From: an uncultured Erysipelotrichaceae bacterium
GTDB lineage: Bacteria > Bacillota_I > Bacilli_A > RFN20 > CAG-288
Length of the DNA stretch: 33,135 nt
Direction: 5' to 3'
Assembly (NCBI GenBank): GCA_902773085.1
Contig: CACYDF010000095.1
Span: 1 to 33,135, forward strand
The notes under the pieces are model-generated. The model was not told the origin of the DNA and did no database searches. It saw nothing but the letters and a program-made list of their open reading frames with translations. A program made the translations under genes and the position numbers. Positions 1,134-14,561 of the stretch are shown piece by piece. Position 1 is the first letter of the stretch. Each line of letters starts with the position of its first letter.

Positions 1134-2308
1134 AAGATTTAGTCCTTCTTGGTGCTACTGGTTCTATTGGTAGACAGGCTTTAGACATATTAAAATATTC
1201 ATATGAATACGATTTAGTCGGGTTAACATTTTCTTCTAATTATAACAAGATTGAAGAATATTTACTCTATTTTCCTAATCTAAAATATGTCGGAATCATT
1301 GATGAAAATGCTGGAAAAGAATTTCAAAATAAGTATAAAAATTATAAAGTAATTATCGGAAAAGATGCTAATATAAAAATACTTGAATTAAATAAAGAAT
1401 CAGTTGTTTTAAATTCTATTTTAGGTAATGATGGATTAGTGCCAACACTAGTGGCACTAAAGCAAAATCAAGTACTGCTTTTATCAAATAAAGAATCGCT
1501 TGTTATTGGTTCTTATTTAGTTAATCCTATTAGAAAAAAATCTAAATCTAAAATATATCCAATCGATTCTGAACATGTTGGTTTGTATAAATTACTTAAT
1601 CAAATAAAAGAAGAAAAAAGGAACAAAAAAGATATTGAATCTTATGTCATTACAGCTAGTGGTGGTGCACTAAGAGATAAAGAAAAAAGAGACTTAAAAA
1701 ATGTAAAACCTGAAGAAGTTTTATCTCATCCCACTTGGAATATGGGAAATAAAATAACCATCGATTCTGCAACATTAATTAACAAAGCATATGAAGTAAT
1801 TGAAGCTAGTGTTTTATTTAATATTCCTATTAAAAAAATTAAGCCACTAATATGTCGAAGTTCTCTAATTCATGCATCAATTATTTTTAAAGATAAAAGT
1901 CAAATATTTGAACTTTCTCCTGTTGATATGAAAGTTGCAATTTCTTTTGCTTTATCTTTTGGAAAAACTAAGGCTCATAAGATTAATTTTGATGAAGAAA
2001 AAATGCTTAAAGAAAACACTTTAGAAGAGATAGATTTTTCTTTTTATCCTTGCTTTAAACTTACTCTAAATATGTATAAAAAATTTGGTAATGTTGGTAT
2101 GATTTTTTTCAATGCTTTAGATACTAAATTGATCGATGAATTTATTGCGAATAATATTCCTTTTACTGATATATATTTAGGACTAAAATATTTGTATTTA
2201 AACTTCAATATTAAGGAAGAATTAACTGAAGAAAATATTGATAAAATTTCAACTGATGCAATTAAATATGCAAACAAAATAATAGCAAATAAGGAATATA
2301 AAAAATGA
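1130..2308 (+). CDS. dxr: 1-deoxy-D-xylulose-5-phosphate reductoisomerase
   Basis: Motifs LLGATGSIG, NKESLV, PIDSEH, TASGG and HPTWNMGNKITIDSATLINK. The GTG start overlaps the cdsA TGA stop. Confidence 0.95.
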   Translation: MKDLVLLGATGSIGRQALDILKYSYEYDLVGLTFSSNYNKIEEYLLYFPNLKYVGIIDENAGKEFQNKYKNYKVIIGKDANIKILELNKESVVLNSILGNDGLVPTLVALKQNQVLLLSNKESLVIGSYLVNPIRKKSKSKIYPIDSEHVGLYKLLNQIKEEKRNKKDIESYVITASGGALRDKEKRDLKNVKPEEVLSHPTWNMGNKITIDSATLINKAYEVIEASVLFNIPIKKIKPLICRSSLIHASIIFKDKSQIFELSPVDMKVAISFALSFGKTKAHKINFDEEKMLKENTLEEIDFSFYPCFKLTLNMYKKFGNVGMIFFNALDTKLIDEFIANNIPFTDIYLGLKYLYLNFNIKEELTEENIDKISTDAIKYANKIIANKEYKK

Positions 2309-3657
2309 CTTTCTTATATGTCCTGCTTTTTTTAGTTTTGCTATCCATTGTTGTCTCTTTGCATGAACTAGGTCACTATTCCATTGCAAGTATATTCAAT
2401 GTCTACTGCGCAGAATTTTCAATTGGTTTTGGACCAAAAATTTTTAGAAAAAGATTTAAATATAAAAGAAAAAAACCTTTATTTAACTCTCCAAATATTG
2501 AACCTGAAAGAATCTTACCTTGTCGAAATCCAAACTATGAATATATTCAATCAGAGACTTATTTTTCTGTAGGTGTCATTCCTCTTGGTGGATATGTATT
2601 AATGGCCGGAGAACAAAATATAGATTTGTTAAATAAAGAAATTCCTGTTGAAAGAACTATTGAAGGAATTAATCATTTAAAACAAATAATGATTTTTTTA
2701 GCAGGAGTATTTACTAACTTTCTTTTAGCTCTTGTTCTTTTATTTGTTAATTATTCTTCTGTTAAACAAGTAATATCCTTAGGTGATAAATCTAATGAAG
2801 TTATGGTTAGTGAATCATCCTTAATAAGTGAAAAAGGTATTTCTTCTTATGATCGAATCTTATATGCATATCAAGAATATCATAATCTAGAGGGTTCTTC
2901 AGATATCTTTTATTTTCCTCAAAACGGATATGGAGAAAAACTAGATAAATATTTAACATATAAAGAAGGAACTTCTTATCTTTCCCCAACTTGCGTGTCT
3001 TATGCAGTTCAAGATTGTTTCTTATATAAATATTATTCTTCACTTGATTCTAGTCATTATTCATATCCAGAAGAAATTAAAAATTATTCAGTTAAATATG
3101 ATTCATATCGATTAGTCCATATAAAGTATCAAAAACAAAATAGTGATGATATTTTAGAAACATCCATTAAATGTTTAACTCAAGAAACACAAGTTGGAAA
3201 TGAAAAGATTAAATCTTTTCAACTCCTTGGTATTTCTCCTTTAACTAAAGAAGAAAGACTCGGAATAAAACAAGCTTTTATTACAACTGGTTCTCAGTTT
3301 GGTAATCTTTTTACTTCATTATATAAAGGACTTTTTTCAATCTTTACCCCAACAGGTTGGAAACAAACTGGAGGAATCATAGCAGTTTATCAAGTAACAA
3401 CAGATGCTTTTAAATCTAGTGATATAAGTTACTTCTTATTAATCTGGGCATATATATCTATTAATCTTGGTTGCTTTAATCTTCTTCCATTTCCCGGACT
3501 TGATGGATGGCAATGTTTTATTGCTTTAACTGAAACAGTAACACGAAGAAAAATATCTTTAAAAGTTAGAGGAATAATTAATGCCATTGGTTTAATCTTA
3601 TTATTTGCTTTTGCTGGACTACTAATTGTTAAAGATATAATTAGGTTTATTATTTAA
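2305..3657 (+). CDS. rseP: RseP/RasP-family site-2 (M50) intramembrane zinc metalloprotease
   Basis: HELGH zinc motif, FSIGFGP, IPLGGYV and NLLPFPGLDG; follows dxr. Confidence 0.9.
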   Translation: MTFLYVLLFLVLLSIVVSLHELGHYSIASIFNVYCAEFSIGFGPKIFRKRFKYKRKKPLFNSPNIEPERILPCRNPNYEYIQSETYFSVGVIPLGGYVLMAGEQNIDLLNKEIPVERTIEGINHLKQIMIFLAGVFTNFLLALVLLFVNYSSVKQVISLGDKSNEVMVSESSLISEKGISSYDRILYAYQEYHNLEGSSDIFYFPQNGYGEKLDKYLTYKEGTSYLSPTCVSYAVQDCFLYKYYSSLDSSHYSYPEEIKNYSVKYDSYRLVHIKYQKQNSDDILETSIKCLTQETQVGNEKIKSFQLLGISPLTKEERLGIKQAFITTGSQFGNLFTSLYKGLFSIFTPTGWKQTGGIIAVYQVTTDAFKSSDISYFLLIWAYISINLGCFNLLPFPGLDGWQCFIALTETVTRRKISLKVRGIINAIGLILLFAFAGLLIVKDIIRFII

Positions 3658-3720
3658 AGCTTTATTGTACTTTAAAATTACTAAATATCTAAACTAAAAA
3701 CTATGTACTTATATTAGAGT

Positions 3721-3746
3721 GTCTCAAAAAGTATAGTTTTTGGCAC
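3721..3746. repeat. 26-bp imperfect dyad, serine-recombinase-type site S1 (GTCTCAAAAAGTATAGTTTTTGGCAC)
   Basis: Imperfect palindrome with a central AT dinucleotide. Its reverse complement matches 3826-3851 at 21/26 positions. Confidence 0.7.
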
Positions 3747-3778
3747 AAGTTGTTTTAAATAAAAAAAGGCGTGCAATA

Positions 3779-3807
3779 TTGATAAAACTATACAAAAATC
3801 GTATAAT
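3779..3807 (+). promoter_or_regulatory. sigma70/sigmaA promoter for the XRE-lipoprotein operon
   Basis: TTGATA (3779-3784), 17-bp spacer, TATAAT (3802-3807). It lies between sites S1 and S2. Confidence 0.75.
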
Positions 3808-3825
3808 TTAGAACGAAAAATAGGA

Positions 3826-3851
3826 GTACCAAAAACTATAAGTTTTGGAAC
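3826..3851. repeat. 26-bp imperfect dyad, serine-recombinase-type site S2 (GTACCAAAAACTATAAGTTTTGGAAC)
   Basis: Imperfect palindrome with a central AT. It is an inverted copy of S1, with centres 105 bp apart. Confidence 0.7.
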
Positions 3852-3947
3852 TTTTTATTTAATTCTACTTTTTGGCGAGTCATTCTCTTAATTGGTTATT
3901 TACAAAATAACTAATTAAAAATATTATTTCTAGGAGGAGATATTATT

Positions 3948-4886
3948 ATGACTTTTGGAGAGAAGTTAAAACAATTGCGTACTGAGAAAGGTATTACACA
4001 AAATGATTTGGCAGAAAAACTCTATGTTACCTTTCAAACAGTTAGCAAGTGGGAAAATGATGTAAATCAACCAGATATTCCAACCTTAAAAAAGATTGCT
4101 CTTTTTTTTAATTGCTCAATTGATTATCTTCTTGATATTGATTCCAAAAGTAATAATCAGAGTGATAAAGTAAAATGTTCTCTTTGTAATAAAGAAATTC
4201 TCCCTAATGAAAACAAACACAAGATAGCAAGAAATAATCCTGATGGAAGTGAAATGACACTAGTTTTATGTGATTCTTGTTATAGTAAGACACATAATCA
4301 AAATAACCAATCACAACAATCAATAAATATCTTTCCTATTGGATTTCAAAATAAATCTCAAGAAACTAAATCATATTCTCAAGAAAACAAATCTAAGTTA
4401 AATCCAATTGAACCGACAATTAATAAACCAAAGGAAGAGAAATTAGTCCCTGAAGTAAAAGGAAAACATAGACTTTCTAATAGGGATGATAAAGTTCCTC
4501 TAATTTGGAGTATTGTTCTTGGTATTATTGCATTAATAGTAGTAATTGTTGTTAGTGCAGTCACTAGTAATTTTTCAGGTGCAACTATTGGTGTTGCTCT
4601 AGGTGTAGGATACACTACTACAGCAACAATATATTGTATATTCTCAGCATCATATATAAGTGATGTGTTTTTAGAAATATCAAGTTGGACTATTAAATTT
4701 CCTGGGTTAATTTTTTCTTGGGATTTAGAAGGTTTTGCTTGGCTTATAGGTATGAAAATACTTTTTGCAGTTCTTGGCTTCTTAGCTGGAGTTGCAGTGA
4801 CTGTACTTGCTATTGCAGTTTCAGCCTTTTTATCTATATTTTCTTTTATACCAGTGTTGATATCAAATCGAAGAAATTCATTTTAA
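3948..4886 (+). CDS. XRE-family HTH regulator with CxxC...CxxC zinc-finger-like module and C-terminal transmembrane domain
   Basis: N-terminal HTH_3 (LKQLRTEKGITQNDLAEKLYVTFQTVSKWE), CSLC...CDSC, a Q/N/K-rich linker and several hydrophobic helices. Strong AGGAGG RBS. Confidence 0.85.
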   Translation: MTFGEKLKQLRTEKGITQNDLAEKLYVTFQTVSKWENDVNQPDIPTLKKIALFFNCSIDYLLDIDSKSNNQSDKVKCSLCNKEILPNENKHKIARNNPDGSEMTLVLCDSCYSKTHNQNNQSQQSINIFPIGFQNKSQETKSYSQENKSKLNPIEPTINKPKEEKLVPEVKGKHRLSNRDDKVPLIWSIVLGIIALIVVIVVSAVTSNFSGATIGVALGVGYTTTATIYCIFSASYISDVFLEISSWTIKFPGLIFSWDLEGFAWLIGMKILFAVLGFLAGVAVTVLAIAVSAFLSIFSFIPVLISNRRNSF

Positions 4887-4912
4887 TAAGTTTTATATAG
4901 GAGGGAAATGAA

Positions 4913-6502
4913 ATGAAAAAAACTTTATTATTAACCGCATTATTTGCTCTTACTTCTTTTGCAGCCTGTTCAAATGGTGAGACAGCTGAGACCAGTAAAA
5001 AAGAAGTGTTGCCTACTGCAGCACAATTAGTTAAGGCACGACAAAGATCTTCAACGACAGTTGATAGTCAGGGATATGATTTTAATTTACAACTAGTTGC
5101 CGATGCTTCTTTTGCTGGTTTAAGTAAAACACTAACTGGTAACTACAACTGCCAGTTTAGGAAAAAAACAAGTGATAATACGTTAAACTTTAAACGTACA
5201 ACAAGTGGAGATTTACTTTTTGATTCAACTAAATACATTATTTGCAAAGGTGATAGTAAGATTGCTTTAAAGTATAATGACGAAGGTGAATTTAAAAAGA
5301 GCTCTGTTGCTCAAAATGATATTGATGTAGATTTACTTAATCTTCCTTTTGAAAAATTCATGGATTCATTACAGGATTCTGATATATCAAGCGTTGAAAC
5401 AAATGATAAATCAGGATATAAATATAAATCAAGAGTTAAACTAAGTTCAGAAAACAAATATTTAGAGCCTGTTCTTTCTCTTATTGGTAGTATGGGACCT
5501 AAGATTAAAATTAAAGGTGCTGAGTTTGATAATCTTGCAAATGGTATTGATTTAAATTTCAATATGAACAGTGACTATTCATCTCTTGAAGGATTTTCTT
5601 TCTCCTTCAATCTAAAATTCCCGTTTGCTATTAAAGGTAAACAAGGTAATGCAGGATTTACTCTAACTTATTCTCAAAAACTTGCCTCTTCTGATATTTC
5701 TATTCCAGACGATTCAAATATTAAAATAAAAGAAAGTGAAATTACTCCTATTATTAACAAAATTAATAGTAGTATTGATGCATATAAAGCTAATAACACT
5801 TATTCACTAGGAATCGAAGCAAAAAACGAACTTGATCCTGCATGGAATAAACTTGCGATTAAGGATTCATATACTGCATTAATGTATAAAAATGGTGATG
5901 CTTTTAATCACTCTTATAAATATAAAACTCATACAGAAGAAGATGGAAAAGAAAACTTTAAATACATCATTGGTAATTTAACTGACAATACTGTTCATAA
6001 AGTTAAAGTAAAAACTTTAGCAAACGAAGATGTTGGCACAGTCTCTAACATTACAGCTAATTCTCAATATGAATATTTAACTAACAATTTTAAACTTAAT
6101 ATTTCAGATGTGGATTGCATTAAAGAAGAGAAAAAAGATACTAAGACTACATATACCCTATTTTTAAGTAACGCTGAAACTTATAACATTCAAAACAAGA
6201 TATTAGCTTATGTAAACTCTAATAATGAAGAAGGAGTAATTAAAGCCAACAACTATTTTGATAGTGCTGAAAATACTATCCGTAAATCTAAGTTTAATAT
6301 TACTTATGATGGGGATGAATTAAAAGAAATTATTTGCAAAACAAAATTATCGTATGCTCCAACTGATGGAGATTACATTGGTTACAATGTGACCTTAGAT
6401 AACATCCTTAAAGCTTCCTTTAACGAAAAATTAAATGCTGCAAGTAGTTATGAGAAAGCATCAAAGGCTACCCTTGTTGGTGGGTTAAAATATTTGCTCT
6501 AA
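4913..6502 (+). CDS. putative lipoprotein of unknown function
   Basis: Signal peptide with lipobox FAA-C (MKKTLLLTALFALTSFAAC); GGAGG RBS; the rest of the protein is soluble. Confidence 0.8.
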   Translation: MKKTLLLTALFALTSFAACSNGETAETSKKEVLPTAAQLVKARQRSSTTVDSQGYDFNLQLVADASFAGLSKTLTGNYNCQFRKKTSDNTLNFKRTTSGDLLFDSTKYIICKGDSKIALKYNDEGEFKKSSVAQNDIDVDLLNLPFEKFMDSLQDSDISSVETNDKSGYKYKSRVKLSSENKYLEPVLSLIGSMGPKIKIKGAEFDNLANGIDLNFNMNSDYSSLEGFSFSFNLKFPFAIKGKQGNAGFTLTYSQKLASSDISIPDDSNIKIKESEITPIINKINSSIDAYKANNTYSLGIEAKNELDPAWNKLAIKDSYTALMYKNGDAFNHSYKYKTHTEEDGKENFKYIIGNLTDNTVHKVKVKTLANEDVGTVSNITANSQYEYLTNNFKLNISDVDCIKEEKKDTKTTYTLFLSNAETYNIQNKILAYVNSNNEEGVIKANNYFDSAENTIRKSKFNITYDGDELKEIICKTKLSYAPTDGDYIGYNVTLDNILKASFNEKLNAASSYEKASKATLVGGLKYLL

Positions 6503-7100
6503 TTCTTTTCATCCTATACTCACTAACTAATCTAAAGAAAGAACTACGAGATATTCCAATTATATTAATAGCTTCTTTACTATTAATATTGTTACTAAAA
6601 TATTTCTTTAAAGTAATAAAGGTGTTAGATGGCAATTCCTTTTTTGGTCTACCGAATTTGACACCTTTTTCTTTTGCAATCCTGATTCCTTCTAATTGCC
6701 TTTCTTTAATATTATTTCTTTCATTTTCTGCAACAAAAGAAAGAACTTGTAAAACAATATCTGAAATAAACTTCCCTACTAAGTTTTTACCTTTAATTCT
6801 TGTATCAAGTAAAGGCATATCAAGAACTTTTATATCTGCACCAATTTTCTTAGTAATTCTAGACCATTCTTCTAAAATCATATGATAGTTTCTTCCTAGT
6901 CTATCAATTGATTTAACTATTAACAGATCATCTCTTTTTAATCTTCTAATTAATCGTTGATAGTTAGTCCTATCAAAATCTTTTCCTGATTCTTTATCAA
7001 TATAGATGAATCTTTCATCTATATCCAATTCTTTAATCTCTTCATATTGTCTATCAATATTTTGATTCTTTGTTGAGACTCTAATATAAGCATATGTCAT
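6468..7100 (-). CDS. small serine recombinase (resolvase/invertase family)
   Basis: YAYIRVST with catalytic Ser9, DKESGKDFDR, VKSIDRLGRN, ERNNIKERQLEGI, GRP and a C-terminal HTH; GGAGGA RBS. Confidence 0.95.
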   Translation of the reverse strand: MTYAYIRVSTKNQNIDRQYEEIKELDIDERFIYIDKESGKDFDRTNYQRLIRRLKRDDLLIVKSIDRLGRNYHMILEEWSRITKKIGADIKVLDMPLLDTRIKGKNLVGKFISDIVLQVLSFVAENERNNIKERQLEGIRIAKEKGVKFGRPKKELPSNTFITLKKYFSNNINSKEAINIIGISRSSFFRLVSEYRMKRIRANILTHQQG

Positions 7101-7162
7101 ATTTATTCCTCCATTAATAATATGTTTATTACAAAGAAATATTATGACAAGAAATTAAAAAA

Positions 7163-7188
7163 GTACCAAAGAATATATATTTATTACA
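7163..7188. repeat. degenerate third recombinase-type site S3 (GTACCAAAGAATATATATTTATTACA)
   Basis: Matches S2 at 17/26 positions in direct orientation with the same central AT. It lies about 60 bp upstream of the recombinase start, where res/autoregulatory sites are usually found. Confidence 0.45.
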
Positions 7189-7266
7189 GTCCATTATTAG
7201 ATTATGATTCTCAATTTAGATAATTATCAATACTGTTGTATAGTAATGCATTAATTTAATATATTT

Positions 7267-7331
7267 TGATGCAAATTATCTGCACTTTTACTTGAAAATT
7301 TGCATCATTTATAATATTATTAGTGCAGATA
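7267..7331 (+). promoter_or_regulatory. promoter with two interleaved inverted repeats upstream of the Fic remnant
   Basis: TTGAAA(7292)-N17-TATTAT(7315). Inverted repeats TGATGCAAATT/AATTTGCATCA (7267-7277, 7297-7307) and TATCTGCACT/AGTGCAGATA (7277-7286, 7322-7331). Confidence 0.5.
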
Positions 7332-7349
7332 GAAAATTAAATAACTGAT

Positions 7350-7743
7350 ATGAGAAACTTTGATTATTCATTCCTTAAAGACTTAAAAGTTCCTTCTAAT
7401 TTTTTAACATTGACTAGTATTATTTATTCTATAAAAAAAGAAGAAGAGCAAAGAAAAAAAGAGTATCCAAATATTTTTACTAATCTTCAAAAAATAGCAA
7501 TTATTCAATCTGTTAAAGAAAGGCAGTAATGCTATTGAAGGAATTATTACTAGTGATAAAAGGATTGAAAAAGTTGTTCTTTCTTCTATAATTACAATTT
7601 CTAAAAAACAAATTAAAGAACTATTACCAGATATTTCAATTTCAACAATTGAAAGAGTTTTATCTAATCTAATATCTGAAAACAAGATTTCTAAAATAGG
7701 TACTACAAATAAGGCTAGATACTTTAGAGTAAATAAAAAGTGA
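7350..7743 (+). pseudogene. Fic-family pseudogene (4-bp duplication plus deletion of the catalytic domain)
   Basis: Reads MRNFDYSFL...AIIQSVK then GSNAIEGIITSDKRIE, the Fic N-terminal SxxIEG motif, across an AAAG duplication at 7515-7522. It is fused directly to a C-terminal winged HTH (ISKKQIKELLPDISISTIERVLSNLISENKISKIG). No HPFxxGNGR motif. Confidence 0.8.
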
Positions 7744-7822
7744 TTCGTTTAACAAAAGCATTTTTCAATAATAATCACTAATAGCAAAGCTAACAAAATA
7801 TTTATGTGAATTTTGAATAAAA

Positions 7823-7851
7823 TGTCAAGTTTTTATAAAATTTACTTGACA
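7823..7851 (+). promoter_or_regulatory. inverted-repeat operator overlapping the -35 box of the AbiE operon
   Basis: TGTCAAGT (7823-7830) and ACTTGACA (7844-7851). The right arm contains a perfect TTGACA -35. Confidence 0.55.
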
Positions 7852-7891
7852 AAATACTACATAGAAATAATAATATATTTAGAATTTAATT

Positions 7892-8620
7892 ATGGGTAAA
7901 ATAAGTAAAAAAGTATTATCAGAGATTAAGAAATATTCACCTAACCAATTAATTATGGCTAGTGAGCTTTATCGTGATAGATTTTCTAGTGATATGAGTG
8001 AAACTGCTTTTGCTAAACTTATAAGTAGACTTTGCCTTTCTGGAAAAATAGAAAGAATATCCAAAGGTATCTACTGTATACCTGAAGATACTAGTTATGG
8101 AAAGATACTTCCTTCAGAAAGTGAAATAGTTAAACTATATACTAAAAATGAAAACGGAGTAGTTATCGGCTATGAGATGTATAACTATTTTGGAATAACA
8201 ACTCAAATTGCAAAACTATTCGAAGTTTATTCTTCATCTATTGATGAAAAAGAAAAGAATATTGGTAATGTTAAAATTAAAAAATATAACTTGCATTACA
8301 ATCAAAAAACTAAATCCATGATTTATATTCTTGAACTTTTATATAACTATAAACATATACAAGATTTAAATACAAACATTTTCGTTAAAGAAATAGAAAG
8401 GCTTTTAAATGGATATGATGAAAAAGTATTTGAAGTAGTTCAAAAAGAAATTAAGTATCCAAAATGGGTAATAGCTTTTTTATATGAAGCATTAGAGTAC
8501 TACCATATATCCAATAAGTTGAATAGATACTTATCATCTTTTTCAACTTATTCAATTCCAAAAATGAGAGATCTATATGAATCTGCACGACAAGAAAGAG
8601 AAGTTTTCAATTTTAATTAA
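7892..8620 (+). CDS. AbiEi-like type IV antitoxin / winged-helix regulator (DUF6088-like)
   Basis: N-terminal wHTH (ISRLCLSGKIERISKGIYC) and GYEMYNYFGITTQ; overlaps the downstream AbiEii gene. Confidence 0.8.
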   Translation: MGKISKKVLSEIKKYSPNQLIMASELYRDRFSSDMSETAFAKLISRLCLSGKIERISKGIYCIPEDTSYGKILPSESEIVKLYTKNENGVVIGYEMYNYFGITTQIAKLFEVYSSSIDEKEKNIGNVKIKKYNLHYNQKTKSMIYILELLYNYKHIQDLNTNIFVKEIERLLNGYDEKVFEVVQKEIKYPKWVIAFLYEALEYYHISNKLNRYLSSFSTYSIPKMRDLYESARQEREVFNFN

Positions 8621-9509
8621 ACTAACTTCAGACGAAAAGAATATACCTGTAGACGCAGTTGAAAGAGACTATTATATAGTTCAGTCTTTGTTATTTCTTT
8701 CAAAATCTGAATATAGTAATGACTGTGTTTTTAAAGGTGGGACATCTCTTAGTAAATGTTTTTCAAGTTCTATAGAAAGGTTTTCTGAAGATATTGATTT
8801 AACATATATGAACACTGATGGAAAAAGTGATAAAGAAATTGAAAGAAACCTCAAGTCCATTGAAAAAATAATGACATATGGTTTTGAAAGCGAAAAAATT
8901 GAAAATGAAAGAAACAGAAGAAACAAAAGTATTTGGTTTTGGCTTAATGATAGAAACAAACGGGTTAAACTAGAAATAGGATCCTCGGTTAAACCTGAAC
9001 CTTATTCTAAGAAAATAGTTAAAACATATATTCATGAATATCTTGAAAAAATTGGGAGGACAGAAGATATCAATGAATTTGGGTTAGTGCCAATTGAATT
9101 AAATGTTTTAAATATTGAAAGAACATTTATTGACAAAGTGATGGCTGTTAAAAGGCACTCAATCTGTGGAAGCATAATAAATAAAGCAAGACATATATAT
9201 GATGTTAAAAAATTGTTTGACATGAAAGAGATTAAAAATTTTTTATCAAACAAGGATGAGTTGAAAAAAATCATTAGATTAACAAAACAAACTGATTCGT
9301 TTTATTTACAAAAAAGAAATATTCCTAAAGAATATAATCCACTTGGTGAATTTAATTTTAAAAGTTGGGAAGAAGATTTTATAAAAGCTAAAAGTGAGTA
9401 TGAAAACTTACACAAAAGACTTTTATTTACATCTAAAAAGCAAGACTTTGATGATGCTATTAAAACATTTATTGCTATTGATGAAATACTTAAGGAAATA
9501 AACGAATAA
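8577..9509 (+). CDS. AbiEii/AbiGii-family nucleotidyltransferase toxin
   Basis: Motifs VERDY, FKGGTSLSK, RFSEDIDL, ERTFIDK and RHIYDV. Confidence 0.9.
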   Translation: MNLHDKKEKFSILIKLTSDEKNIPVDAVERDYYIVQSLLFLSKSEYSNDCVFKGGTSLSKCFSSSIERFSEDIDLTYMNTDGKSDKEIERNLKSIEKIMTYGFESEKIENERNRRNKSIWFWLNDRNKRVKLEIGSSVKPEPYSKKIVKTYIHEYLEKIGRTEDINEFGLVPIELNVLNIERTFIDKVMAVKRHSICGSIINKARHIYDVKKLFDMKEIKNFLSNKDELKKIIRLTKQTDSFYLQKRNIPKEYNPLGEFNFKSWEEDFIKAKSEYENLHKRLLFTSKKQDFDDAIKTFIAIDEILKEINE

Positions 9510-11850: not shown

Positions 11851-12354
11851 TTACTTCTTATTTTTAATATTCATTAAAGCTTTATATAATTCTTCAGGTG
11901 ATGCATTTGGATTTTCATCAATATATTTTTCATATTCTCCAATTACATCTCCCATAAATGGTTCTTCATCGTGGTCATGATCTGAATCAACTTTAACCAT
12001 GTTATCATCTTTCATATATAAAGGATATGAGTCATCTTTAAGAAGAAGTTCTTCATCTTTATCTTTATATGTAAACCTAAAATAGAAATGAATTGCAGTA
12101 TCTGAAAGTATCTGTTTTATTTTTCTAGTCACTTCTTTTTCTTTACCTTTATATTCTTTATCAGCATCAATATATACGAATAAAACAAATGATGTTTGAT
12201 CAACTCCATTATGAGTAACATAACCTTCTTGTGCATAAAAAATTAAGTCTTCTTCATTCTTAAGATTATATAAAGACACTAAAGCAGGATGAAGCTCTTT
12301 TGTCTTCTTCATGATGTGATAAACATCCATTCCTTTAATTGTTACAATTACCAT
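11851..12354 (-). CDS. hypothetical protein, possibly DUF1904/tautomerase-like with an acidic, His-rich tail
   Basis: N-terminal MVIVTIKGMD pattern; directly follows priA. The family call is from recollection only. Confidence 0.55.
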   Translation of the reverse strand: MVIVTIKGMDVYHIMKKTKELHPALVSLYNLKNEEDLIFYAQEGYVTHNGVDQTSFVLFVYIDADKEYKGKEKEVTRKIKQILSDTAIHFYFRFTYKDKDEELLLKDDSYPLYMKDDNMVKVDSDHDHDEEPFMGDVIGEYEKYIDENPNASPEELYKALMNIKNKK

Positions 12355-12356
12355 TT

Positions 12357-14561
12357 TTATTCACTCCCTGGATCTACATTTATTGAGATAGAAACATCAC
12401 TAATTTTTGATTTAATTTCTTTAATAGAATCAAGAATTGGAGACATCTCTTCAAGCGATTTATATTTTATCAAAAACTGACGATAATACCTATAATTAAT
12501 CTTGCTTACATATGGTAAATACGGACCGTAAATATTTATTCTTTTATTATTGGCAGAAACAATTAAAAGGTTTTTAATATCAAGAGAAACTTCTGTTAAT
12601 TTTTTTTCATTTACACTTGATAAAGTTAGTTGAACTAAGTAGACATATGGAGGATATAAATACTTTTTTCTTTCTTCCATTTCATATGTATAAAAAGATG
12701 AGTAATCTTGCTTACTTGCATAGTCAATAATCTTGTTATCTTTTAAGTATGTTTGAATATAAATATCAGTCTCTTTATTATTCCTTCCTGCTCGACCAAC
12801 AAACTGAGAAATTAAATCAAAAGTTTCTTCATTTGCAAGGTAGGTAGGAAGCCTTAAAAGATTATCAGCATCTACAATAACTGCACATGTGACTTTTGGA
12901 AAATCATGTCCTTTTGCAATGATTTGAGTACCGATAAGAATATCTGCTTCTCCTTGTTTAAAAGTATATAAAACTTCGTGTCTATTTCTATTAGATGAGT
13001 TATCAGAATCAAGTCTATATATATTTGCTTGTGGAAATAAAAATCTGATTTCTTCATATGCTCTTTCAGTCCCGTACCCAAGAGAAGTAAAGACGTGTGA
13101 ACCGCAAATACATTTATGTTCAGCCTTACTAATTTTATATCCACAATAATGACATCTAAGGGTGTCATCTTTCTTGTGATATACAAGTGGAATATTACAA
13201 TTTTCACATTTTGCAACAAGATGGCAATCCCGACAAATATAGATAGGAGAATAACCTCTTCTATTTATTAAAATCATTGTTTGTTCTTTCTTTTCAATTC
13301 TTTTTTTGATTGCATCAATTACTTCTGCAGTAAAAAAAGAAGAAATTTTTAAATCAAAATTTTCTGCTTTAGATAAATCAATTAAATGGATTTTATTTTG
13401 ATTTTCATAAAATCTTTCTTTCAAAACAAGATGTTTAATTAAGCCTTTTTCAGCTTTTGCTTTTGTTAATATTTGTGGTGTTGCACTTCCATAAATCACT
13501 TTACATCCTTCAATTTCACTTCTAAATCTTGCAACTGTTCTAGCATCATAAAAAGGTGAAGAGTCTTGCTTGTAACTTGTTGAATGTTCTTCATCAATAA
13601 TTATTGTAGATAAATTTTTTACAGGTGCAAATATTGCACTTCTTGTTCCTAAAACAATTTTCGTTTCTCCACTTGCAATCTTGTTATATTCTTCATATTT
13701 TTTTATGTTAGATAAAGAAGAATTTAATATTGCTATATTCTCTTTAAAATAATTTGTTAAAAGTAAGTATAAATTATCAGTTAATGCTATCTCTGGAACT
13801 AAGATAATCGCACCTTTATCTTCTTTTAAGTAGTGCTGAATAATCCTTATATAAATTTCTGTTTTTCCACTACCAGTTACTCCTTCAATTAAGTATTCTT
13901 TTTCTTTCCCACTTATAATAGAATCATATACTTCTTGTTGTTTATTTGTAAGTTCAAATTCTTGTAAATTTGTTGATTCTATTTCACTAACTTTATTTCT
14001 TGGAACTTGTTTAATTTCAACAAGGTCTAAAGTTAAAAGCCTTGATAAAATATTCTTATTTAACTGACTCTTTTTTATACCTAATTTATTTGCTTTAGTT
14101 TTGTTAAATAATGCTATATCTCTTTTAGTTAAATCATACTTAGATAAATCAGTTTCTTTTGCTAAAACATAGTCTACATAACTTGGAGTAGTTGAAATAT
14201 TTAATGAACCTTTTTTGGGTTTTAAAGCAGAAGGTAGAAAAGCAGAAATAACACTAATTAGTTCACATTTATAATATGCTGAAATCTTTTTTGAAAGAGT
14301 AATTAAATTATCATCAAGAAGAGGCTGAGTATCAATCTTGCTTTTGATTTTTGCAAGTTTTATATCGCTATTTTTTTCATATTCTTCAATTGAATTTACT
14401 TCTTCAATTTCTAAAACAAAACCTACTTCTTCTTTATTTTTTCCAAAAGGAAGAAGAACTCTTTCACCAACTAAAATATCTTCTCCTTCATATACATATG
14501 AGAAAAGTCTATCAAGTGATGATACATTTCTTCCAATAAGGACCTTATATATTTTTTCCAA
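12357..14561 (-). CDS. priA: primosomal protein N' (replication restart helicase)
   Basis: GVTGSGKTE, LVPEIAL, GTRSAIF, IIDEEH, SATP, NRRGY, four CxxC pairs, GTQIIAKGHDFP and GRAGR. Confidence 0.97.
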   Translation of the reverse strand: MEKIYKVLIGRNVSSLDRLFSYVYEGEDILVGERVLLPFGKNKEEVGFVLEIEEVNSIEEYEKNSDIKLAKIKSKIDTQPLLDDNLITLSKKISAYYKCELISVISAFLPSALKPKKGSLNISTTPSYVDYVLAKETDLSKYDLTKRDIALFNKTKANKLGIKKSQLNKNILSRLLTLDLVEIKQVPRNKVSEIESTNLQEFELTNKQQEVYDSIISGKEKEYLIEGVTGSGKTEIYIRIIQHYLKEDKGAIILVPEIALTDNLYLLLTNYFKENIAILNSSLSNIKKYEEYNKIASGETKIVLGTRSAIFAPVKNLSTIIIDEEHSTSYKQDSSPFYDARTVARFRSEIEGCKVIYGSATPQILTKAKAEKGLIKHLVLKERFYENQNKIHLIDLSKAENFDLKISSFFTAEVIDAIKKRIEKKEQTMILINRRGYSPIYICRDCHLVAKCENCNIPLVYHKKDDTLRCHYCGYKISKAEHKCICGSHVFTSLGYGTERAYEEIRFLFPQANIYRLDSDNSSNRNRHEVLYTFKQGEADILIGTQIIAKGHDFPKVTCAVIVDADNLLRLPTYLANEETFDLISQFVGRAGRNNKETDIYIQTYLKDNKIIDYASKQDYSSFYTYEMEERKKYLYPPYVYLVQLTLSSVNEKKLTEVSLDIKNLLIVSANNKRINIYGPYLPYVSKINYRYYRQFLIKYKSLEEMSPILDSIKEIKSKISDVSISINVDPGSE

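Follow-up and report, generated by a model that had tools for sequence, protein, structure and literature searches.

The DNA considered here is a stretch of 33,135 nt (hereafter, the window) that makes up contig C95 (CACYDF010000095.1) in the genome of an uncultured Erysipelotrichaceae bacterium, an assembly of 1.2 Mb in 170 contigs with 28% G+C and 69% completeness. A run index search with 31-nt words found the window sequence in ruminant-gut metagenomes. The 290-bp spacer between rseP and an XRE-type regulator gene contains what is very likely a promoter switch, namely, a 109-bp segment with an internal promoter, P1, bounded by two 26-bp dyads, S1 and S2, and located upstream of an operon encoding the regulator and a lipoprotein. 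The features of this locus are as follows.

2305–3657: rseP, encoding an M50 protease
3721–3746, no strand: S1, putative left recombination site, a 12 + AT + 12 dyad with a dyad score of 18 of 20, second best in the 1.2-Mb genome
3732–3840, no strand: predicted invertible segment of 109 bp, ending in the identical 12-bp cores 3732–3743 and 3829–3840, with the crossover inside the cores
3779–3807, plus strand: predicted promoter P1, TTGATA-17-TATAAT, 11 of 12 consensus positions, facing the XRE/lipoprotein operon
3826–3851, no strand: S2, putative right recombination site, a 12 + AT + 12 dyad with a dyad score of 20 of 20, best in the genome
3862–3902, plus strand: conserved regulatory block, present in all orthologues of the XRE-transmembrane (XRE-TM) gene and outside the invertible segment
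3899–3927, plus strand: possible second promoter P2, TTTACA-17-TATTAT, 10 of 12, outside the segment and 20 nt before the start codon
3948–4886, plus strand: XRE-type helix-turn-helix (HTH) gene, 312 aa, first gene downstream of the switch (Pfam HTH_3, 5.5e-18, residues 7–61)
4913–6502, plus strand: lipoprotein gene, 529 aa, signal peptide with Cys, second gene downstream of the switch
6468–7100, minus strand: small serine recombinase, 210 aa, Ser9, candidate invertase (Pfam Resolvase, 6.5e-26, residues 3–147)
7163–7188, no strand: degenerate third site, 63 bp before the start of the recombinase gene, at the position of a good dyad in homologues

Re-reading of the window bears out the elements from which the initial annotation had built its proposal of an invertible promoter: the coordinates, letters and 21/26 inverted match of S1 and S2, the 12-bp arms around a central AT (3733–3734 in S1, 3838–3839 in S2) with centers 105 bp apart, the TTGATA-N17-TATAAT promoter pointing at the XRE-lipoprotein operon, and the Resolvase-domain gene 2.6 kb away, a distance measured from S2. 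An inverted-repeat search delimits 22-nt arms at 3725–3746 and 3826–3847 that are 86% complementary, with 79 nt in between. By itself, the quality of this repeat is within chance expectation and uncompelling, because 28 inverted pairs with a match of at least 19/22 and a gap of 30–300 nt occur in the 1.2-Mb genome, so that about 0.8 are expected per 33-kb window. Furthermore, over the 26 nt, S1 and S2 match each other at 20 positions in direct orientation, and each matches its own reverse complement at 20 of 26. The sites have almost no polarity and, because they are near-symmetric, with a direct match almost equal to the inverted one, their relative orientation is unreadable from sequence alone. 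The 15-mer common to S1 and S2 (with R at position 3) occurs in the whole genome without mismatches only at these two sites, with one mismatch nowhere, and with two mismatches in 13 copies. The first 15 nt of the degenerate site at 7163–7188 differ from this 15-mer by two mismatches, and the same holds for the recombinase paralogue on contig C166, at 2299. Additional half-site-like matches are located at 3694, 3724, 3837, 3864 and 3784, and S2 can also be read as CCAAAA-N8-TTTTGG.

A separate resemblance involves 3703–3733, comprising the left half of S1 and 13 nt on its left side. This stretch is similar to recombinase codons 4–12, encoding YIRVS (24/26, with one gap, to the C166 paralogue), and, although not significant genome-wide, the similarity is located directly at the site and may represent the remains of a recombinase 5′ end. 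We rejected the 3.4-kb inverted pair formed by 3703–3723 and 7075–7095 through this match to the recombinase 5′ end, which scores 28 bits (E = 0.18 genome-wide), on par with other chance matches.

P1 shows the best consensus match among 11 promoter-like sites in 3500–4100 and is also the best promoter between the dyads when both strands are scanned. Its start is predicted near 3814, placing S2 inside the transcribed leader. Inversion had been expected to switch the operon off; the reorientation of the promoter stands, but 'off' is doubtful given the weak P2 outside the segment, and the flipped state is perhaps 'low'. An Rfam scan of 3500–4100 yielded three matches, all well under their gathering scores.

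The flipped form is found in metagenome contigs. We compared window positions 2500–8000 with the Logan contigs, not the reads, of four runs from four studies (X1, X3, X4 and X19). Run X1, from bovine gut, is the best holder of the window sequence (share of words 0.69) and contains the joints 3731→3840 and 3732→3841 on opposite strands, with one contig per joint at a depth of 4.4. These joints are both junctions of an exact inversion of 3732–3840, the flipped state that had been predicted. The shorter sides of the two joint contigs are 42 and 81 nt, and 12 letters fit either side; these ambiguous letters are the identical cores 3732–3743 and 3829–3840 (CCAAAAACTATA on one strand), which span both dyad centers. 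Adjacent X1 contigs have depths of 3.7 (3370–3710) and 3.1 (3904–4151), similar to that at the junctions. In X19, a contig covers 3736–3902 in the window orientation, so that both orientations are on record, the flipped one in X1 and the other in X19 and the window itself. The assembly to which the window belongs has no flipped-form contig, the only junction words seen there being those shared with the reference. The run index works with words of 31 nt; provided that Logan contigs are assembled with words of the same length, a repeat-induced assembly join is unlikely, because the 12-nt core is shorter than such a word. The other joints in the compared region, 3565→7438, 4849→5746 and 7435→7527, have sides of just 21–25 nt, and one more join, 7881→3913, has 25 letters in between.

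The second line of evidence is the association of the site type with the recombinase. Among solved relatives, the window enzyme is most similar to Sin/Bin3 (1.1e-27), followed by Tn3 resolvase (6.3e-19), gamma-delta resolvase (3.8e-18) and Gin (1.2e-12); Ser9 aligns with the catalytic Ser10 of Tn3 resolvase, and the alignment extends to residue 196. It also matches phrog_125, 'DNA invertase', over its full length (6e-48). With 63.4 bits against a cut-off of 272 for the NCBIfam Mpi model NF009949, the protein is not a member of the Mpi family. Of the likeness to Hin, Gin and Pin on which the initial annotation drew, the 26-bp, 12 + 2 + 12 layout of the sites holds, but two points need correction: Sin/Bin3 is a nearer relative of the enzyme than Gin, and the central AT is palindromic rather than polar.

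Scanning species-representative genomes for this recombinase produced 76 homologue loci (41–90% identity), mostly from metagenome-assembled genomes (MAGs) labelled Bacilli, Acholeplasmatales, Anaeroplasma, Mollicutes or Clostridia; with two further loci, L062 and L063, the set comprises 78. The upstream regions of the homologues contain a 26–28-bp dyad laid out in the same way, in which half-sites of the GTATCAAAAGGT type flank AT or, in a few cases, GT. In 28 of the 78 loci, the last 270 bp or so before the recombinase start include a high-scoring 12 + AT/GT + 12 dyad; these loci account for 29 of all 55 matches. A scan using the window 15-mer alone, and thus free of circularity, placed three of 12 two-mismatch matches at 5887–5920, just upstream of recombinase genes, and in the host genome, the two recombinase paralogues are each preceded, at 63 bp from their start, by one of the 13 two-mismatch copies. 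The site type goes with the recombinase clade and, as set out below, not with the XRE gene. Protein clusters of the clade number at least 7999 at E ≤ 1e-20, and many lie on contigs of about 1 kb.

Many of the relatives carry not a single dyad but a comparable module. In 10 of the 28 loci, a second dyad copy (at least 18/26) is found 93–160 bp from the upstream dyad, compared with 0–2.2 matches per whole shuffled locus, and dyad pairs occur also in L071 (145 bp apart) and L095 (82 bp apart). A promoter, often with an extended -10, lies between the paired dyads, and in most cases the module has the recombinase gene on one side and a divergent operon on the other. The operon of L079 combines a D12 adenine methyltransferase and an HNH nuclease with a small, broken XRE-type gene, and a D12 methyltransferase is also part of the L064 operon. 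In L112, the module comes after the recombinase gene, pointing at a BspA-LRR/collagen surface protein. Such cargo is typical of phase variation, as is the lipoprotein in the window. We also observed that in many homologue loci (L077, L079 and L064, around 5500–6000), the module separates the recombinase gene from a divergent small XRE gene and a restriction-modification operon, an arrangement suggesting that promoter inversion would there yield phase-variable restriction-modification.

The module occurs in opposite orientations in L077 and L079, a positive outcome of the search for the flipped state in related genomes that had been proposed as a check. These loci share the same neighbors and have collinear flanks (183/195 identical on the right), and of the 124 bp between the dyad centers, 107 align when one segment is inverted, compared with 71 in direct alignment. 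As read from the two sequences, the switch points fall in the shared dyad center and are located to about 6 bp. A homologue of this segment was found in seven of 49 loci tested, facing the recombinase in five (L070, L072, L073, L079 and L081) and facing away from it in two (L077 and L100), and the extended -10 promoter changes strand along with the orientation of the segment. The orientation common to L077 and L100 may reflect one shared event.

Other relatives show less clear or no pairs. In G014, a genome of the same genus as the host, we observed a weak inverted pair (L063, contig C69, 1004–1142) with 81 nt between the arms and TTGATA-17-TATAAT on the minus strand; its self-dyad match is 16/26, and its arms match at 18/26 inverted versus 14/26 direct. 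The pair lies between two divergent genes for signal-peptide proteins, 3.6 kb from a recombinase 58% identical to that of the window, and from this arrangement might be a toggle between two surface proteins. The recombinase locus of G061 has no comparable repeat pair. The two contigs of one MAG that include L138 and L139 were considered as an inversion signature and rejected, given that they diverge to the left of the whole dyad rather than at its center.

The genes downstream of the switch have a different distribution. The 312-aa XRE protein combines the N-terminal HTH with two Cys-x2-Cys motifs and a hydrophobic C-terminal membrane part, and the 529-aa lipoprotein has no Pfam family match. 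XRE-TM homologues are encoded in 20 of 45 genomes of the genus, with orthologues at 40–41% identity, and on eight metagenome contigs. S1/S2-type dyads are absent from all 14 other XRE-TM orthologue upstream regions inspected (10 genomic, 4 metagenomic), and the site motif was found in none of the 14 genus-relative loci L002–L015, including the regions downstream of rseP. What these genes do share is the block at 3862–3902: an alignment of 15 upstream regions has 15 invariant columns within window positions 3837–3900, 13 of them at 3863–3900, and the block ends in a -35-like hexamer followed by a -10-like hexamer 17 nt on in 14 of 15 orthologues and 16 nt on in one. S2 lies just upstream of the block and aligns with nothing conserved. 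The larger region (window 3862–3927; L017–L025, L036 and L050–L053) is kept in 15/15 down to 30–40% protein identity; in it, two AATTC-containing repeats spaced by about 20 nt are followed by GTTATTT and, at a fixed 17 nt, by the -10-like hexamer, 20–25 nt before the start codon. A palindrome in mid-block has outer bases that covary among the orthologues, and the block could be a native promoter with an operator or, alternatively, a leader hairpin.

The surroundings of the locus include two further genes upstream of rseP.

36–1133: cdsA
1130–2308: dxr

On the other side, the lipoprotein and recombinase genes are convergent, their 3′ ends overlapping by 35 bp (6468–6502), and the recombinase gene is adjoined by a pair encoding an AbiEi-like antitoxin and an AbiEii nucleotidyltransferase toxin (7892–9509), with housekeeping genes beyond. 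The contigs of X4 (about 98% identical over rseP) depart from the window at 3657 and those of X19 at 3665, just past the rseP stop; in genus relatives, other genes follow rseP, and synteny with the window stops at the rseP stop codon. Because contigs of other strains depart there, the XRE/lipoprotein/recombinase/AbiE stretch, from 3657–3665 to about 9500, looks like a variable island. In run X1, the summed contig depth is 243.9 at 7284–7467 compared with 5–15 elsewhere, so that this region upstream of the recombinase, which includes part of a small open reading frame (7350–7529) without a Pfam match, is a repeated or very abundant sequence. A tentative assignment of 7350–7744 as a Fic gene remnant was dropped, as Pfam gave no support.

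Elsewhere in the host genome, contig C166 (1–2406) carries a second lipoprotein and recombinase cassette with 80% DNA identity to window 4899–7270, its lipoprotein and recombinase being 79% and 86% identical to those of the window. This contig terminates 16 nt before the lipoprotein start, leaving the region upstream, with any switch, unassembled. Contig C136 has a 550-bp intergenic region (8460–9010) containing a perfect 22-nt inverted repeat (8705–8726 / 8863–8884, gap 136), a second inverted pair (8472–8493 / 8750–8771, 20/22) and recurring TAGTACTA-like words. At a distance of 3 kb, 11956–12831 encodes a tyrosine recombinase.

From the X1 inversion joints, the association of sites and recombinase, and the opposite orientations in relatives, we conclude that S1 and S2 are very probably the recombination sites of a 109-bp invertible promoter, that is, a very short serine-recombinase inverton; these same three observations support the initial interpretation. 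The locus combines inverted repeats around a short segment, an internal promoter facing a gene, and both orientations in sequence data, as expected of invertons. By its location and family, the recombinase encoded at 6468–7100 is most likely the flipping enzyme. We infer the identity of this catalyst, cutting at AT, frequent and reversible flipping, and the effect on expression.

Small serine recombinases bind 12-bp half-sites as dimers, and paired sites form a tetramer in which all four strands are cut at the central 2 bp, after which one half rotates and the strands are rejoined. By analogy, dimers of the window recombinase, or of its 86% identical C166 paralogue, would bind both 26-bp dyads and pair; cutting at the central AT of each site, swapping of half-sites and religation would then turn over 3732–3840 along with P1. 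In the window orientation, P1 would transcribe S2, the conserved block and then the regulator and lipoprotein genes. In the flipped orientation, the -10 of P1 would be at 3765–3770 on the minus strand, with transcription reading antisense into the rseP 3′ end, and the operon would be left with at most the weak, conserved P2, making a 'low' rather than an 'off' state possible. The 105-bp spacing corresponds to 10.0 helical turns; among the family spacings, 126, 115 and 137 bp are near whole turns, whereas 144–145, 129 and 160 bp are not. The palindromic AT core and the near-symmetric sites provide no polarity by which inversion would be favored over deletion.

Several observations weigh against an invertible promoter at this locus. 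With a direct match nearly equal to the inverted one and a palindromic core, the sequence gives no reason of its own for inversion over deletion; the dyad scoring was devised only after S1 and S2 were known and is thus partly circular; and the site upstream of the host's own recombinase is degenerate. P2, which does not invert, may sustain expression of the operon even after flipping. The flipped form was seen in one of four runs, with one contig per junction and at the low depth of 4.4; X3 has no cover of 3604–3971 and X4 only partial cover, so that neither informs on orientation, and assembled contigs give neither the share of cells in each state nor coexistence of both within one sample. 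The metagenome collection yielded no contig of the same species, the best of eight loci found being 39% identical. Finally, the genome also encodes three tyrosine recombinase (Phage_integrase) matches and one large serine recombinase.

Some of these points could instead be explained by a real inversion that is a fixed strain difference, produced by a one-off event at the repeats, rather than a live switch. The flipped form is indeed known from one run alone, as assembled contigs, X19 (in the pieces listed) and the window show only the other state, and L077/L100 and L079 are distinct species-level genomes, between which the orientation is fixed. We nonetheless regard such a fixed difference as unlikely: an intact recombinase with its catalytic serine is encoded 2.6 kb away, the crossover falls at dyad centers both in the window locus and in L077/L079, the same module recurs beside the recombinase clade in many genomes, and it is X1, the best holder of the window sequence (0.69), that has the opposite orientation. 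The segment could also be flipped by one of the tyrosine recombinases of the genome (on C145, C136 and C6), the dyads then being core sites whose arms surround a 6–8-bp overlap. That the crossover is located only to 12 bp here and about 6 bp in L077/L079, intervals which such an overlap fits, also counts against a serine recombinase as the catalyst, and the alternative reading of S2 as CCAAAA-N8-TTTTGG and the three Phage_integrase matches point the same way. Yet none of the three genes is on contig C95, the dyad lies directly upstream of a serine recombinase gene in 28 of 78 loci, and 12 + 2 + 12 with a 2-bp center is the crossover layout of small serine recombinases, making a tyrosine catalyst very unlikely, even if promoter switches of Mollicutes and Clostridioides use tyrosine enzymes, as parts of two reports indicate (PMC2268961, PMC7446863).

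Readings without promoter inversion fare worse against the same data. S1 and S2 could be operators of the XRE regulator, or of the recombinase acting as a mere repressor, that loop out P1 with no programmed recombination: the dyads, ten helical turns apart, bracket P1 at about -80 and +25, HTH proteins bind dyads of this kind, and of the additional half-sites, one (3784) overlaps the -35 box and another (3694) is upstream. Operators, however, are expected to be conserved upstream of orthologous regulator genes, and S1 and S2 are not: the 14 other XRE-TM upstream regions lack the dyads, and all share another block (15/15). Together with the existence of the flipped form and of homologous modules in both orientations, this leaves the operator alternative, raised at the outset, unsupported and highly improbable, although looping by the recombinase could coexist with inversion. 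The other alternative raised then, that S1 and S2 are subsites of a res-like composite, one the crossover site and the other accessory, through which the XRE/lipoprotein/recombinase island would be resolved or excised, draws on the resolvases Sin/Bin3, Tn3 and gamma-delta as the closest solved relatives, on the strain variability past rseP (departures of X4 and X19 at 3657 and 3665) and on the third, degenerate site at 7163. It is scarcely credible given the product found: among joints with long sides, none changes strand or skips except those of the S1 × S2 inversion, and no joint connects S1 or S2 to 7163, the 3565→7438 skip having a 25-nt side. A res system would yield a deletion between two direct res copies with accessory subsites, whereas the product seen is an inversion between S1 and S2, and spacings of 82–160 bp with a promoter inside, along with flipped segments in relatives, are unfit for accessory sites.

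Beyond the invertible promoter of the window itself, we tentatively advance, at somewhat less than even confidence, a broader scenario: an undescribed, large clade of Sin-like small serine recombinases of uncultured gut Bacilli and Mollicutes-like bacteria might carry a portable 'mini-inverton', two non-polar 26-bp dyads 82–160 bp apart around a strong promoter, which in most genomes would direct transcription either to the recombinase gene or to a divergent XRE/restriction-modification or surface-protein operon and here would have been co-opted for a membrane-tethered regulator and a variable lipoprotein. If so, inverting a loop with just 79 bp between the arms and a palindromic core would require a synapse geometry and a direction control unlike those of the Fis-enhancer invertasome.

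Phase switches of surface proteins and defense systems shape the evasion of phages and host immunity by gut bacteria and, to our knowledge, are almost unknown in the uncultured Bacilli with small genomes (Acholeplasmatales, Anaeroplasma-like) that inhabit ruminant and human guts. The present locus offers a concrete, testable switch, with 26-bp sites, a 109-bp substrate and a 210-aa enzyme, and a recombinase clade with thousands of metagenome members seems to bring its own promoter switch. With its very short segment and non-polar sites, the locus is a compact substrate on which to ask how serine recombinases come to select inversion. Since many homologues are on contigs of about 1 kb, such switches may also break metagenome assemblies.

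Compared with known systems, the window recombinase resembles Hin, Gin, Cin and Pin, the Fis-dependent invertases of enterobacteria and their phages, in being a small serine recombinase with an N-terminal catalytic serine that goes with 26-bp sites made of 12-bp half-sites and a 2-bp center, and Hin, too, flips a promoter. It differs in the length of the segment, 109 bp as opposed to about 1–4 kb, in the palindromic AT core, the hix and gix cores being polar, and in its nearest relatives, Sin/Bin3 (1.1e-27) and not Gin (1.2e-12). Hin/Gin-type invertases need a Fis-bound recombinational enhancer in cis, for which a 109-bp segment has little room. Sin/Bin3 (from Tn552) and the beta recombinase of Gram-positive plasmids, the closest solved sequence relatives, are enzymes of low-GC Gram-positive bacteria that need only a DNA-bending protein and no Fis, and beta is also able to invert; those enzymes, however, resolve at composite res or six sites by their own genes, whereas in the window a promoter is flanked by two equal dyads and the observed product is an inversion.

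The repeat sequences of Mpi, the master promoter invertase of Bacteroides fragilis, differ from S1 and S2. As described in part of one report, Mpi controls promoter inversion at 7 to 13 capsular polysaccharide (CPS) loci and, like the system proposed here, is a serine recombinase that flips short promoter segments for surface structures away from its own gene start (PMC10403206). The window enzyme comes from a different phylum and scores below the family cut-off (63.4 versus 272 bits), and just one target pair was found here, in a 69%-complete genome. In Mycoplasma penetrans, the invertible segment is about 135 bp with 12-bp repeats, and MYPE8180 and MYPE2900 are tyrosine-type. Part of one study of M. 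penetrans names these two open reading frames beside the mpl switch and describes mpl (P35) lipoprotein genes switched one by one via short invertible promoters beside each gene, so that this wall-less Bacillota relative, too, has lipoprotein genes under short invertible promoters (PMC2268961). In the window, unlike in M. penetrans, the first switched gene is a regulator.

With its inverted repeats around a promoter, the locus is like the gut-microbiome invertons detected by PhaseFinder and DeepInverton upstream of surface and defense genes, most of which are also short: in the main-text passages of the DeepInverton paper, more than 75% of 10,983 catalogued invertons are shorter than 300 bases (PMC11602134). 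Those passages do not mention Tenericutes, Mycoplasma or serine, although the supplements may list this locus or clade, and at the level of titles and abstract openings, a full-text literature search returned no report of such a switch in Acholeplasmatales-like gut bacteria. The kind of switch is thus familiar, and what makes this one worth a bench test is its small size, non-polar sites, Sin-like enzyme, regulator as the first cargo, and the breadth of the clade.

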